From the IMG/VR virus record IMGVR_UViG_3300028364_000013: 64,000 nt of DNA. One strand, written 5' to 3'. Positions 3,743 to 37,385 of the stretch are shown here, piece after piece. Position 1 is the stretch's first letter; every line of letters begins with the position of its first letter. The position numbers and the translations under genes were made by a program. Origin of the DNA: a virus (lineage: Duplodnaviria; Caudoviricetes). Under the pieces are notes generated by a model. That model was given only the letters and a program-made list of their open reading frames with translations, did not search any database and had not been told where the DNA came from.

Positions 3743-3813
3743 GAATCCATACGGGATTCGAACCCGTGCCTCCTGCCGAAAGGCAAGCGCTCTATCCGCT
3801 GAGCTAATGGACA
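3743..3813 (-). ncRNA. tRNA-like RNA whose anticodon loop is a 4-6 nt loop
   Basis: Normal D arm (GCTC..GAGC) and T arm (ACGGG-TTCGAAT-CCCGT); anticodon arm CTTGCC-TTTC-GGCAGG. Confidence 0.6.
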
Positions 3814-3897
3814 CATCACCTTAATATCGTTCTACTAAAACTATCTTCAGGCTCCATTCACAACATTAGTAGGGTTGCTTCAGGACTTTTTTTAAAG

Positions 3898-3997
3898 TGG
3901 CGAAGGGAGGATTCGAAACCTCCGACCCCCAATGCTGTCCATTCTTTCACAAGAACAACTAACACACTGGTGCTCTGACCAACTGAGCTACCTCGCC
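3898..3997 (-). ncRNA. tRNA-like RNA with a 30-nt structured insertion replacing the anticodon loop
   Basis: Acceptor GGCGAGG/CTTCGCC-A; stem CCAGTG/CATTGG encloses TGTTAGTTGTTCTT-GTGA-AAGAATGGACAG. Confidence 0.7.
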
Positions 3998-4039
3998 AAA
4001 TGATGATGTAGTCACTTACGCAGCAACACCATCAATTTT

Positions 4040-4426
4040 TTAGACTTTCAAAAAAGGCATAACCCCTTTCAATACATCTAAATGGGTCAAGATGACATTT
4101 GCATTAGCATCAGCTTTCAGCAGAACCTCAAGTGATGGATAATACGTTATATCTCTTTCTTCCATTTCCTCCCACCCATAACATGAACAGTGACCACCTG
4201 ATACCGCAGCCTATTGCCCTGAGGCAGTGAACCCGTGTTGAGTAACCCACTCTTCGTAATCATCAAGTTGATAACCATCAGCCATTACAACCCATAGTAC
4301 ATCTCCTAAAGCGAATTGAATTCTGTCGATGTTCTCAATACCTGTTTCCAAGTATTTAGGACCACCCCAGTTATTCATTCCTGCTTGAGCCGAAAGTGCT
4401 TCTTCAAATGTTTCAAATTTTTTCAT
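4040..4426 (-). CDS. Hypothetical protein (128 codons) with one in-frame TAG at 4211-4213
   Basis: ...TQHGFTASGQ*AAVSGGHCSCYGWEEMEERDITYY... continues in frame for 56 more codons to TAA. Confidence 0.6.
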
Positions 4427-4865
4427 GATAATATCTTTTTTAGTTAGTATTAGACTTTTCCTAAAATATTATCGCTTCCTTATTTAAAGTTTGAAGAAAT
4501 ACGCTTCAGCAACAACTTGGTCTTCTGTTTGAGCGCAACGTTAATTACAAGCAAATCGTAATACACCTTGTTATTGCTGAATATTTTTAATTTTCAATAT
4601 GTCAATGAACTTTTAGAACCGTTGTTCTAAAAAAACAAAACGCTTTGAAAGATGTAACCTTAGTCCCTTCTGCCCTATTCTGGCGGGAGCCTGAGAATGT
4701 GTTCTTATGGTACAGTCCATCGGCCTTAGTCACTCTATCGTGAGCTTTTCTTAATCTCGTCACCGAGGTATTTCGTTTTGTTTTCTGTTTCTTTATACGG
4801 GCAAAGATATATAATGTTCTACTAATTACCAAAAGAATTTTAATCTTTTTTTAAACCACTATAAA

Positions 4866-5183
4866 TCAACCGTTTGGATACTTACTTTTTAATTCAGCAA
4901 GAACCCTTCTTTCTTCAAGTTCTTTAATATCCTTAGCTTCTTGGGTTGCTGCAGCATCATCTGCTGCAAATAAACCATCAATATCTAATTCGCCCTTATT
5001 TTCACTCACTTCATACAAAGTAGCTCTTTGAATGTTATCTCTTCCGAAATATTCAATTTTTTCTCTCACTTTATTTCCAAGCTCTTCTTCAGAAAATGCT
5101 TCAAATTCAACAATAGTTTCTCCACACGATATAGTGTAGTCACATCCGTTACCTTGATATAGGTGTAATAATAATTTTGCCAT
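4866..5183 (-). CDS. Hypothetical protein
   Basis: 105-aa ORF, tightly packed with upstream gene. Confidence 0.7.
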   Translation of the reverse strand: MAKLLLHLYQGNGCDYTISCGETIVEFEAFSEEELGNKVREKIEYFGRDNIQRATLYEVSENKGELDIDGLFAADDAAATQEAKDIKELEERRVLAELKSKYPNG

Positions 5184-5184
5184 C

Positions 5185-5926
5185 TTAATCTAATTTTTCT
5201 AATTTCTTTAATATCTTAGGATTGAACTCATCGACCCTATCATTTCCAAACCTAATTGAAAGTCCGTCCTCTCTTGTGTTCTTAATGACAAAACCTTTTA
5301 GTCCTATAAATGCACCATATTCTACTCGGTCATCTCTATCCATTTTCTTTTCATCAAGCATAACCCAATCATTCCTCTTTACTTCTTCAAGAATATTGTC
5401 AGTCTTTACTGTATGCCTGAACTTTCCTTTGAAATACTCCAGCATCACATGAATTCTATCACTATGAAGGTATCCAAGTTCTCCAACCTGCTCAGAATCT
5501 GGCATCTCACGACCCCATGGTTCTCCAGTCAACATAACACTCGAACAAACAGAAGTTGTAGGTCTAACGTAATGCCACCCATCTCTATGAGGCATATCAT
5601 AATACATGCTACCTTGTGATATAATCGTAGAGAATACCTCTGGTTCTTCAAGACCTTCTCCGAATCCTACACCCATTTCATATTCTCCTTCAAGCACATG
5701 AATAGCGCTTGGCCAAGGGTGAGGATGAAACAAAGACTCCCCTGCAGCGCAAGGATGAATAAAGTGTAAAAACAATCTATGATTTCCCAGTTGACACCAA
5801 AGCCTTTCAACGTGTGGTGGATGGTAATTTACATCTACTGATTTCCATATAGAAGCGTCACACAAAAGGTCATACAATTTAACTCTTTCAATCTGTTGTA
5901 GTTTTTCTATAAAAGTCCTTTCCATA
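5185..5926 (-). CDS. Cupin-fold protein with C-terminal extension
   Basis: FHPHPWPSAIHVLEGEYEMG ... GWHYVRP cupin-like motifs. Confidence 0.55.
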
Positions 5927-35516: not shown

Positions 35517-35572
35517 TCACTCCATTGAGTGTGCAGCAACCACTACGTGCAAGTGTTTTAACTTTGGTTACC

Positions 35573-35649
35573 TCCTGGCGGCTGAGATTCGAACTCACGA
35601 CCTCTATCAAATATCAGGATAGCGCTCTAACCAACTGAGCTACGCCAGG
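35573..35649 (-). tRNA. tRNA-Ile-like (GAT) with a 9-nt anticodon loop
   Basis: CTATC-CTGATATTT-GATAG. Confidence 0.6.
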
Positions 35650-35673
35650 TTGTTTTTATATTTCATCACATCA

Positions 35674-36102
35674 TTATGATGCTGTTTTTTTAATGTTATT
35701 AATATGAAAATTACTAACAGGGTCTTCTTTTATTCCTTGAGAATCAACCCACTGTTCGTAGTATTCTTTTTGAGCAAGACGTAAGCTACCTGTTAACCTA
35801 CGAGCTTGGTCGCATGCTTCAATAGCCATAGATGTTGCTTTATGATTTAAGTCTGGTTCACGAAATACAGAAACACACACTCCTCTTTGTCGAAGTTTTT
35901 CAACAAGAGACAATAAAGACTCTTCGTCTTCAATTGATAAACATGCTACGTATTGTGAATTTTCGTACCATTCCTTAAATTGGTCTGGATACTCGACTGC
36001 AAATTGAGACATTGCATGAGCCGATTGCGCAATTTGAGCTCCAGGATGCAAATCTCTTGTAACAACTATTCTAAGTTTTTCATTATTTTTTACCTATTTC
36101 AT
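35674..36102 (-). CDS. Peptidyl-tRNA hydrolase, Pth2-like, with in-frame TAG at codon 3
   Basis: MK*VKNNEKLRIVVTRDLHPGAQIAQSAHA...VFREPDL...TSMAI; no other in-frame ATG before the conserved first strand. Confidence 0.75.
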
Positions 36103-36170
36103 ATCTAAGTTATTTTTAATTATTTTGGTGTTTATTTTTATACGTAAAAATTTATAAAATGTTTCTATAA

Positions 36171-37283
36171 TTATAAACTTTCTATTAATTGACTCATTTT
36201 CTTTAACAAATCTTCATTATATGCAATTCTTAATAATTTAATTTCACTTTTACTACAGTAATCAGTTTTAATGCTATCGTTTATTTGCGTTAATTCCAAT
36301 GCTTTTTCTCCCCCAAAATAATCAATAGACTTAAAATGTTGCCTACCATCAAATTCAATACAAATATTGTAATCAGGCAAGTAAAAATCAAATGGTAACT
36401 CCATTATATTCCTACATTCTTTAAATTTCTTCTGCCTTTCAAATTTTATTAAATTTTCTTTTAATAATTTTGAAATCCTTTTTTCTCCCTTTGACTCATT
36501 GCAATGTGGACAACCAATACCTCTAATGTGATGTGTTGGCACCTGCTCAAATTCATCGTGAACTGGGCAAATTATTTTTATTTTTGTTTTAGAGTTAATA
36601 TATTTAACAAAAGAATAATCATATTTATTCTCATGAATCAAATGTGACTCCATTATAAAATATTCTTGTGATTTTTTAAGCTTATCAGCACGCTCTATTA
36701 TAGCGCATTTATTACAACCACGCCCAGATAAATGGTCATGAGGAGTTTGTTGAAATTGTCCATGATTTGGACAAATTATTACAATTGGTTTTTTTGAATT
36801 GTTATATTCCGTAAAAGAGTAATCATATTTATTTGAATGGACACTTTGAGCTCTTACTTTGAAATCTTCGAGAGTTAACTTCATTCTATCATTCCCACAC
36901 GATGGACAACCCCTATTAGATAGGTGATTCAAAGGCATTTGATTAAATTCTCCATGATTTTGACAAATTATTGTAACTGGAGTTTTATAATTCTTATAAT
37001 TTACTTTGCTATAATTGTAGCAATCACCATGAATTGATATTGCTTTTTTTACAAATTCTTCTTTTGATAAGGATTGTTTGTATGATTTTTTTAAGTTTCC
37101 ACAACCTGGACAACCAACCCCATTAGCGTGATGAAAAGGCAATTGATTAAACACTCCATGAACTGGACATTTTATATCTATTTTAGTTCTTGCATTTTTA
37201 TATTCTACAAGACTATAATCGTAAAAATTATTATGAATTTTTTGCGCCTTTTTAATGAAGATGTTTTTGTTTTTTTCTTTCAT
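36171..37283 (-). CDS. Putative homing endonuclease: four CPxHGxFxQxPxxH..GCPxC repeats plus PD-(D/E)xK domain
   Basis: LPFDFYLPDYNICIEFDGRQH. Confidence 0.85.
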   Translation of the reverse strand: MKEKNKNIFIKKAQKIHNNFYDYSLVEYKNARTKIDIKCPVHGVFNQLPFHHANGVGCPGCGNLKKSYKQSLSKEEFVKKAISIHGDCYNYSKVNYKNYKTPVTIICQNHGEFNQMPLNHLSNRGCPSCGNDRMKLTLEDFKVRAQSVHSNKYDYSFTEYNNSKKPIVIICPNHGQFQQTPHDHLSGRGCNKCAIIERADKLKKSQEYFIMESHLIHENKYDYSFVKYINSKTKIKIICPVHDEFEQVPTHHIRGIGCPHCNESKGEKRISKLLKENLIKFERQKKFKECRNIMELPFDFYLPDYNICIEFDGRQHFKSIDYFGGEKALELTQINDSIKTDYCSKSEIKLLRIAYNEDLLKKMSQLIESL

Positions 37284-37310
37284 ACTAATAAGTAGTAAAA
37301 AATTTTCAAC

Positions 37311-37385
37311 AAGTTGTGCGCCAGGATGAATATCACGTATTGTGACTATTCTTAATTTTGAATTATTAATCTATAAGTTTTTCAT
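37311..37385 (-). pseudogene. Diverged duplicate of the Pth2-like 5' end, also with in-frame TAG (codon 5), in frame with the endonuclease
   Basis: MKNL*INNSKLRIVTIRDIHPGAQL. Confidence 0.7.

Follow-up and report, generated by a model that had tools for sequence, protein, structure and literature searches.

Leader-preceded tRNA clusters and amber-containing genes in a putative translation-maintenance island of a large Bacteroidota-infecting phage

The window analysed here is a stretch of 64,000 nucleotides from a large lake phage, whose record (G000) is a fragment, 53% complete; blastn against a phage collection returned no DNA match to close relatives. Two of its tRNA clusters, units B and C, are preceded by a promoter, a short leader ORF and an intrinsic terminator:

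12380-12427, minus strand: Bacteroidota-type promoter of unit B (TTTG, then TAnnTTTG), belonging to a family of near-identical promoters
12213-12332, minus strand: leader ORF B, 39 codons, with only Pro, Met, Gly, Tyr, Ala and Asp at codons 15-26
12157-12186, minus strand: intrinsic terminator B, 12 bp and a T-run, 26 nt past the leader stop
10227-12075, minus strand: tRNA cluster B (Pro, Asp, Pro, Asp, a weak Ala-like match at 10984-11057, Tyr, Gly, Gly)
near 28074, minus strand: promoter of unit C, upstream of a 38-aa ORF
27905-28021, minus strand: this 38-aa ORF, between the promoter and leader C
27785-27877, minus strand: 30-codon leader ORF C, whose core is rich in Arg, Trp and Ser
27732-27762, minus strand: intrinsic terminator C, 13 bp and a T-run, 23 nt past the leader stop
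25199-27713, minus strand: tRNA cluster C, with Ser(UGA)-like, Ser(UGA), Ser(GCU), Cys and Ser(GCU) in its first half, Ser(GGA), Arg(UCU), Arg(CCU) and a weak Trp-like match in its second

The tRNA series of unit B ends with Met after the Gly pair, and the same-anticodon pairs of this cluster share no more than 57-61% identity, with differences in their anticodon loops. Cluster C is interspersed with two HNH endonuclease genes. In leader B, 13 of the 38 residues are cognate to the strict tRNA set; taken singly, the match between leader and tRNAs reaches p 0.076 for unit B and p 0.0014 for unit C. The Arg/Trp/Ser core of leader C is kept in the ortholog carried by contig L055, the only one in the right context among the 120 matches listed when a 16-mer of terminator C was compared with metagenome contigs. 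Rfam leader families gave no match to the leaders. An earlier reading of the DNA from its letters (the sequence-only reading) had described two codon-sensing attenuators. Their architecture of promoter, leader ORF, terminator and tRNAs stands, but the 7-nt antiterminator pairings then named for these two units, GGAATCG and AAAGAAC, lie within chance, and the second, that of unit C, is not conserved in the L055 ortholog. The complementarity between leader and terminator 5' arm is likewise not above chance in units B and C (z +0.1 and -0.7 against shuffles).

The same organization is found well outside this fragment. An automatic screen of G000 and of the huge phages LR756500.1, LR745206.1 and LR756501.1 retrieves 17 promoter/leader/terminator/tRNA units. 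Cognate amino acids are enriched in all 17 leaders (Fisher p 2e-32), and when the tRNA sets are shuffled among leaders the observed score is reached in 0 of 20,000 trials (z 6.5). Counted by codon, 190 of 220 match an anticodon of the tRNAs downstream, for 176.7 expected (p 0.013). LR745208.1, a GC-rich phage, displays the same leader-to-tRNA matching; the screen retrieves no leader unit from LR756508.1, though ligase, PTH2 and tRNA(CUA) are present there. Leader stop and terminator stem are 23-32 nt apart in the six units contributed by this phage and LR756500.1, and 17-47 nt apart over the whole set of 17. Complementarity of the leader to the terminator 5' arm beats shuffles in paralog A (z -5.9) and in units E (-2.3) and F (-3.5), with a combined Stouffer z of -5.5. 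A matching of this strength is difficult to reconcile with short ORFs devoid of regulatory role, as they would be if the features of the region were chance neighbours.

Comparison among phages thus supports the view that the leaders monitor the codons that their downstream tRNAs decode, and would form a surveillance layer. In the mechanism proposed, each tRNA cluster lies behind a strong promoter, a leader of 30-39 codons written in the cluster's own codons, and an intrinsic terminator. A scarcity of the matching charged tRNAs would stall ribosomes in the leader, block the terminator and allow the tRNA genes to be transcribed; once supply is restored, transcription would end at the terminator again, resulting in a demand-driven tRNA supply. 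Any shortage of charged tRNA would be sensed, cleavage not being singled out, and host anticodon nucleases may be only one of its causes. These units resemble the attenuators trpL, hisL, thrL and ilvL in having a short translated leader with regulatory codons followed by an intrinsic terminator and, for some phage units, complementarity between part of the leader and the terminator 5' arm; thrL and ilvL are the closer parallel to phage leaders covering several amino acids. In contrast to these attenuators of amino-acid operons, the phage units would regulate tRNA genes themselves and not biosynthetic enzymes, and they are phage-encoded, one per tRNA cluster.

The second set of features comprises genes for RNA-related enzymes and a suppressor tRNA:

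18564-19367, minus strand: ATP-dependent RNA ligase of the Rnl2 type (PF09414, 1e-22), TAG at codon 4 (19356-19358)
19552-20031, minus strand: HAD_SAK_2 phosphatase (1e-26), with HAD motif I (DIDGV) and an IIDD motif
33622-34131, minus strand: small class I methyltransferase (RsmC/RsmD-like), TAG at codon 17 (34081-34083)
34686-34758, minus strand: suppressor tRNA, anticodon CUA (63 bits)
35674-36102, minus strand: PTH2-like protein (PF01981), TAG at codon 3 (36094-36096)
36171-37460, minus strand: promoter of the same family, duplicated PTH2 5' end (TAG at codon 5, 37371-37373) and homing endonuclease fusion

In-frame TAG codons therefore lie near the start of the RNA ligase, PTH2-like and RNA methyltransferase genes, with the tRNA(CUA) gene adjoining. 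The TAG of the PTH2-like gene is found in eleven copies sharing 41-88% identity: it is never TAA or TGA, it is always followed by a purine, and its codon position varies, while the main stop in these phages is TAA. Residues of the PTH2 beta-1 strand precede or span this TAG, and a tRNA(CUA) lies less than 4 kb away in 11 of 20 IMG/VR loci. In the methyltransferase, residues R5 and T7, ahead of the TAG, are invariant, and the L055 and L057 sequences retain the TAG while adjacent codons change synonymously. If these TAGs were nonsense lesions, or belonged to mini-ORFs serving re-initiation, neither the exclusive use of TAG at shifting positions in eleven copies nor the conserved methyltransferase residues upstream of it would be expected. 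Such an origin is nevertheless favoured by the ATT found right after the TAG in most PTH2-like copies and by the polymorphism of the ligase TAG; in the PTH2-like and ligase genes, translation may re-initiate at ATT or GTA after a mini-ORF of 2-4 codons. In the ligase, an N-terminal motif conserved in homologs sits upstream of the first standard start codon; its TAG is not conserved among other huge phages. The only hint on the inserted residue is a low-depth contig in which the TAG of ligase codon 4 is replaced by CAG; the "MKQ" of database homologs was discarded as evidence for Gln, this Q being the pipeline's own TAG=Q reading. Assigning an identity to the tRNA(CUA) by its similarity to other tRNAs gave no signal. 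A TAG preceding a patatin gene was also set aside as a read-through candidate, with a TTG start directly after it.

The comparison with other phages supports a probable amber dependence of these genes. The PTH2-like and methyltransferase genes, and in this phage that of the ligase as well, would need the phage tRNA(CUA) to decode a TAG lying no further than codon 17, so that their products would be made only after tRNA(CUA) works. The amber gate previously proposed for the repair enzymes is retained in this form for these three genes, but not for the HAD phosphatase. In phages that have recoded TAG (code 15), recoding has been proposed to time late genes (bioRxiv 10.1101/2021.08.26.457843; PMC9523058). 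Both situations combine in-frame TAGs with a suppressor tRNA(CUA) encoded by the phage, on which translation would depend. Here, by contrast, coding is dense under the standard code and genes still end at TAG; about three to six genes, a few translation-related ones, carry a single TAG, located within the first 17 codons and adjoining the tRNA gene. The TAG genes and tRNA(CUA) thus look like a conserved cassette rather than genome-wide recoding. If this is true, the cassette would be a natural and compact case of suppressor-tRNA-gated expression in an otherwise standard-code phage, and could represent an early stage toward stop-codon recoding.

The PTH2-like gene, taken earlier for a peptidyl-tRNA recycler, scores 39.9 bits with PF01981 for a curated cut-off of 23, and its N-terminal beta-1 strand aligns with 2zv3 and 1q7s from residue 9. 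The gene is present as claimed, but the canonical GKGK..AQ..HA segment is absent: HPGAQ.AQSAHA is found throughout the subfamily, and the lysine is missing. The lysine of the PTH2 GKGK motif is catalytic. By its sequence, the gene is assigned to a divergent PTH2 subfamily, and a recycling activity is at best putative.

The ligase has nucleotidyl-transferase motifs, and its residues K45, D47, G48, E94, E206 and K228 are invariant in the alignment of homologs. The gene terminates at a genuine TAG stop; read-through of this 3' TAG was rejected, as homologs end at the same point. Searches with the ligase sequence against solved structures gave no match, and PHROGs added nothing on the ORFs of unassigned function in the ligase operon. 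Together with the HAD phosphatase, the ligase could reseal broken RNA ends, which would be their candidate substrates. The system recalls Pnkp and Rnl1 of phage T4, which repair PrrC-cleaved tRNA-Lys, by the association of an ATP-dependent RNA ligase and a DxD-type HAD phosphatase in one operon. It differs from it in the type of ligase (Rnl2/PF09414, with the N-terminus KY(P/G)R..H..S.G.TSDD) and in the phosphatase, here a separate HAD_SAK_2 protein; no polynucleotide kinase was found in the fragment. The heal/seal pair of the sequence-only reading is thus confirmed as two genes with intact motifs, but is short of a 5'-OH polynucleotide kinase, for which no AAA_33 match is found in the 53%-complete G000. 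In LR756500.1, an HD+AAA_33 gene adjoins the ligase. R2K ATP-grasp and DUF3228 were not kept as RNA repair proteins, a protein-modifying peptide ligase being predicted in the source paper.

A third group consists of tRNA-like genes with abnormal anticodon loops:

3741-3813, minus strand: Glu-like, 6-nt anticodon loop (51 bits)
3897-3997, minus strand: Asn-like, 25-nt insertion in the anticodon loop (46.6 bits)
34147-34295, minus strand: 65-74-nt insertion in the anticodon loop (41.5 bits)
35573-35649, minus strand: Ile-like, 9-nt anticodon loop (43 bits)

These four are of Rfam grade, and about five more matches are weak and below threshold, so that the "many" tRNA mimics announced earlier are overstated; a non-decoding role for them is at best putative. 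The lesions are confined to the anticodon loop and the Rfam scores are those of normal tRNAs, which argues against decaying leftovers of homing endonuclease activity, an origin to which the sub-threshold matches would lend some credit. One odd-loop tRNA has been maintained in relatives through compensatory changes. A transcript proposed at 4590-4790 was discarded, its fold not being significant (z -1.67).

These features are best accounted for, with a probability of roughly 60%, by a translation-maintenance island of a large Bacteroidota-infecting phage under two cis-acting control layers, demand-driven tRNA supply and TAG genes gated by tRNA(CUA). Three observations link parts together: the PTH2-like gene is associated with tRNA(CUA) and the methyltransferase in a conserved cassette, the RNA ligase also has a TAG, and one promoter family is common to the PTH2/tRNA(CUA) locus and three tRNA units. 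This near-identical family, which heads these four loci, has only four copies in the 117 kb examined (12427, 28074, 37460 and G000 7203); against viral contigs, its 16-mer yields chance matches within genes only. A search for publications on tRNA-gene attenuators or on the amber cassette found none, and we consider these as the two unreported parts. Why phages carry tRNAs has been a matter of debate for fifty years. Should the leaders act as proposed, phage tRNA genes would be switched on by a shortage of the very tRNAs they encode, and the debate would become directly testable because the leaders spell out the codons that the phage monitors. Leaders and cassette are relevant to annotation as well, since standard gene callers cut the TAG genes short and pass over the leaders.

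A wider proposal is that huge phages possess a closed-loop controller of decoding capacity, in which stall-induced tRNA clusters and an amber cassette including the ligase would defeat tRNA-targeting defences; we hold it as tentative, and rather doubtful. The sequence-only reading had gone further for this locus and joined all parts into one dedicated network against abortive-infection systems acting by tRNA cleavage or depletion: the sensors would release nuclease-resistant replacement tRNAs, broken tRNAs would be healed and sealed, stalled peptidyl-tRNAs recycled, and the odd tRNA-like RNAs would serve as putative decoys. Every type of part is present, and the compensatory changes that maintain an odd-loop tRNA fit this scheme. 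So do the diverged pairs of cluster B, which differ at loop positions 32, 37 and 38, with pyrimidines at 37 included; PMC10264068 reports anticodon-loop changes of such kind as evading anticodon nucleases. There is also a precedent in jumbo phages, for which tRNA supply and RNA repair are already proposed as counter-defence (PMC7824862). Host attack on tRNA is likewise the explanation given in these two papers for large sets of tRNAs, for RNA ligases and phosphoesterases, and for anticodon loops that have diverged; leader-peptide control of tRNA genes and amber-dependent PTH2-like or methyltransferase genes are not mentioned in the abstract of PMC10264068 or in the searched passages of PMC7824862. 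On the other hand, the leaders respond to any shortage of charged tRNA and not specifically to cleavage, nothing links the parts specifically to host anticodon nucleases, and no 5' kinase was found in the fragment. In a co-occurrence check across five huge phages, the parts assort partly independently (no leader unit retrieved from LR756508.1, the ligase TAG absent in LR745206.1 and LR756501.1, HAD_SAK_2 in three of the five, GOLLD in one). Most components of the network thus exist, but their union into a single anti-defence system is something we infer, and we judge it unlikely.

That the features are merely chance neighbours in a tRNA-rich, endonuclease-ridden region is very unlikely in view of the leader matching and TAG conservation described above, even if the tRNAs are interspersed with three GIY-YIG, two HNH and one DUF723 homing endonuclease genes, six in all, and one insertion has duplicated the PTH2 5' end. 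The ORF at 36171-37385 is not a repair enzyme but the product of this insertion: a DUF723/zinc-finger homing endonuclease, starting at ATG 37283, fused to the duplicated PTH2 5' end.

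Comparison with other phages strongly supports both the attenuators of tRNA clusters and the amber cassette, and no description of either was found in the literature searched. The virus record, in which the window lies, is linear and 117 kb long, with an estimated completeness of 53% and a GC content of 34%. The minus strand carries nearly all genes; coding is dense under the standard code, with TAA as the main stop and TAG still terminating genes too. Promoters follow the Bacteroidota consensus, TTTG and then TAnnTTTG. ARAGORN identifies 18 tRNAs in the window, and Rfam, at its curated threshold, 21. 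Two units, B and C, exhibit the promoter-leader-terminator-tRNA architecture that the sequence-only reading had described as attenuators:

near 12427, promoter of unit B, Bacteroidota-type
12332-12213, minus strand, leader ORF of unit B, 39 codons
12186-12157, minus strand, terminator of unit B, 12 bp
tRNAs of unit B, in order: Pro, Asp, Pro, Asp, a weak Ala-like gene, Tyr, Gly, Gly, Met
near 28074, promoter of unit C
27905-28021, minus strand, 38-aa lysine-rich ORF between this promoter and leader C, conserved in L055, a contig of a syntenic relative
27877-27785, minus strand, leader of unit C, 30 codons
27762-27732, minus strand, terminator of unit C
tRNAs of unit C: Ser, Cys, Arg and a weak Trp-like tRNA

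Directly upstream of the window lies unit A, a third paralog, which shares their promoter and 5' leader sequence. An automatic screen required a hairpin and T-run at most 300 nt from a tRNA, and an ORF of 12-70 codons, opened by ATG and closing 12-50 nt ahead of the stem; it retrieved 17 units: 3 in this phage, and 3, 7 and 4 in the huge phages LR756500.1, LR745206.1 and LR756501.1, respectively. All 17 leaders are enriched in the amino acids of their own downstream tRNAs (Fisher's combined p 2e-32), and when tRNA sets were shuffled among leaders, the observed score was reached in 0 of 20,000 trials (z 6.5). One leader displays a QQIQQQQ run ahead of three tRNA-Gln genes, another seven Leu codons, with all six Leu codon types, ahead of five tRNA-Leu genes. 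At the codon level, downstream anticodons read 190 of the 220 cognate-amino-acid codons, as compared to 176.7 expected. The Arg/Trp/Ser core of leader C is retained in L055. Leaders of the GC-rich (55%) huge phage LR745208.1 match their tRNAs likewise (L034-L040; judged by eye), for example one of ten residues in which His, Cys and Tyr abound, ahead of Tyr, Cys and His tRNAs. Since this phage possesses sigma-70-like promoters and no U-rich terminators, codon-matched leaders cross host groups, but their read-out may differ. Leader-peptide control of tRNA genes was not found described in the literature searched.

The distal leader of unit A is complementary to the 5' arm of its terminator well above shuffles (z -5.9), as are those of units F and E of LR756500.1. 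For units B and C this complementarity is not above shuffles, and the pairing proposed earlier for unit C is not conserved in L055. We therefore accept the leaders as predicted sensors of cognate tRNA supply, but regard a switch in B and C as putative. One compensatory change in L055 supports an alternative stem in unit C, pairing the distal leader with the regulatory codons.

The amber gate (early in-frame TAG codons beside a suppressor tRNA(CUA)) had been assigned to the repair enzymes. This applies to the RNA ligase but not to the HAD phosphatase, which has no TAG, and ORF 36171-37385 is not a repair enzyme but a homing endonuclease fused to a duplicated PTH2 5' end. The conserved N-terminal motif of the ligase (Y7, R9, H12, S16, G18, T20-D23, alignment A1) is encoded ahead of the first standard start codon. 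The sole start further upstream, ATG 19367, overlaps the stop of the preceding gene (TAATG), and its codon 4 is TAG. One contig from another lake sample (depth 2.6) has G instead of the window's A at position 19358, making codon 4 CAG, and the ligase genes of other huge phages have ordinary starts. In the PTH2-like gene, codon 3 is TAG, followed by the β1 strand, which lines up with residue 2 of solved PTH2. This layout, in which 1-3 codons separate ATG from TAG and a purine and a KLR(I/V)V strand follow, recurs in the 5' remnant duplicated at 37385, in LR756501.1, in contigs of relatives (L055/L056, L057/L058) and in six contigs of IMG/VR (41-44% identity), the stop being TAG in every copy. 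A tRNA(CUA) lies at most 4 kb away in 11 of 20 IMG/VR PTH2-like loci, including distant members without the TAG. Codon 17 of the methyltransferase is TAG; re-initiation there is ruled out, because this codon falls within the conserved N-terminus (R5 and T7 invariant) and is retained in L055 and L057 despite synonymous changes in flanking codons. In relatives the cassette order is PTH2-like gene, tRNA-Ile, tRNA(CUA), a tRNA with an 8-nt anticodon loop, and methyltransferase; in this phage it is split by insertions. Upstream of the PTH2-like gene sits an inserted DUF723/zinc-finger homing endonuclease (36171-37460, minus strand), whose arrival left a second copy of the promoter and of the first ~25 PTH2 codons, in-frame TAG included. 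Five more homing endonuclease genes (GIY-YIG/HNH) lie amid tRNA clusters (3052-3690, 25310-25807, 26126-26536, 28708-29520, 38957-39670). The gene of an FtsH-like AAA+/M41 protease (29884-31995, minus strand) remains syntenic in L055 with both leader C and the PTH2 cassette.

Of the proposed heal/seal pair, the RNA ligase (PF09414) and the HAD_SAK_2 phosphatase are present, separated by one small ORF and with intact motifs, but neither a kinase nor a 2H phosphoesterase was found in the 117-kb, 53%-complete record. In LR756500.1 the ligase is adjoined by an HD + P-loop kinase gene. The presumed peptidyl-tRNA recycler exists as the PTH2-like gene, yet its product belongs to a divergent subfamily in which the canonical lysine is missing. 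A gene for an R2K ATP-grasp protein, predicted to be a peptide ligase, shares an operon with a DUF3228 gene (14378-16315, minus strand); an R2K gene of LR756500.1 is two genes away from the RNA ligase and adjoins a PARP-like gene.

Of four tRNA-like genes (Rfam 41-51 bits), two have loops of 6 and 9 nt and two carry insertions of 25 and 65-74 nt; ~5 further abnormal ones fall below the Rfam threshold. The damage is limited to the anticodon loop. Such genes could conceivably be decoys, and are possibly homing-endonuclease leftovers. Two relatives carry the 8-nt-loop tRNA (loop TTGAAA(A/G)A) between tRNA(CUA) and the methyltransferase (L055 10585-10661; L057 1246-1322), where compensatory substitutions in three stems (acceptor, anticodon and T) maintain it; at least some abnormal tRNA genes are therefore under selection. 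tRNAs with 4-nt anticodons are present in other huge phages too. Same-anticodon tRNA pairs (Gly, Asp, Pro, Ser-GCU; 10227-12075 and 26971-27254, minus strand) are just 57-61% identical and diverge at loop positions 32, 37 and 38. Asp at 11751 has T37, and Lys(CTT) at 34552 has C37.

The components of the proposed network are largely real, but that they form a single anti-defence network is only what we infer. The broader notion that jumbo phages resist host attack through tRNA supply and RNA repair has been published before (PMC7824862). Within the 117 kb, the promoter family is seen four times, at the PTH2 locus and at three tRNA units only, and it is paired with a tRNA unit and the PTH2 locus likewise in L055; together with the conservation of the amber cassette, this favours linkage. 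The uneven presence of the parts among five huge phages, picked by ligase homolog, counts against it: PTH2 is found in 5/5, HAD_SAK_2 in 3/5 and GOLLD in 1/5, with leaders in 4/5 (by eye, not by the screen, for LR745208.1). The window harbors one such RNA:

1995-2421, minus strand, GOLLD RNA (Rfam, 169 bits, full-length model)

Lying just beyond the span of the proposed network, it neighbors an HD-domain ORF and abnormal tRNA-like genes, and in LR745206.1 GOLLD adjoins a tRNA as well.
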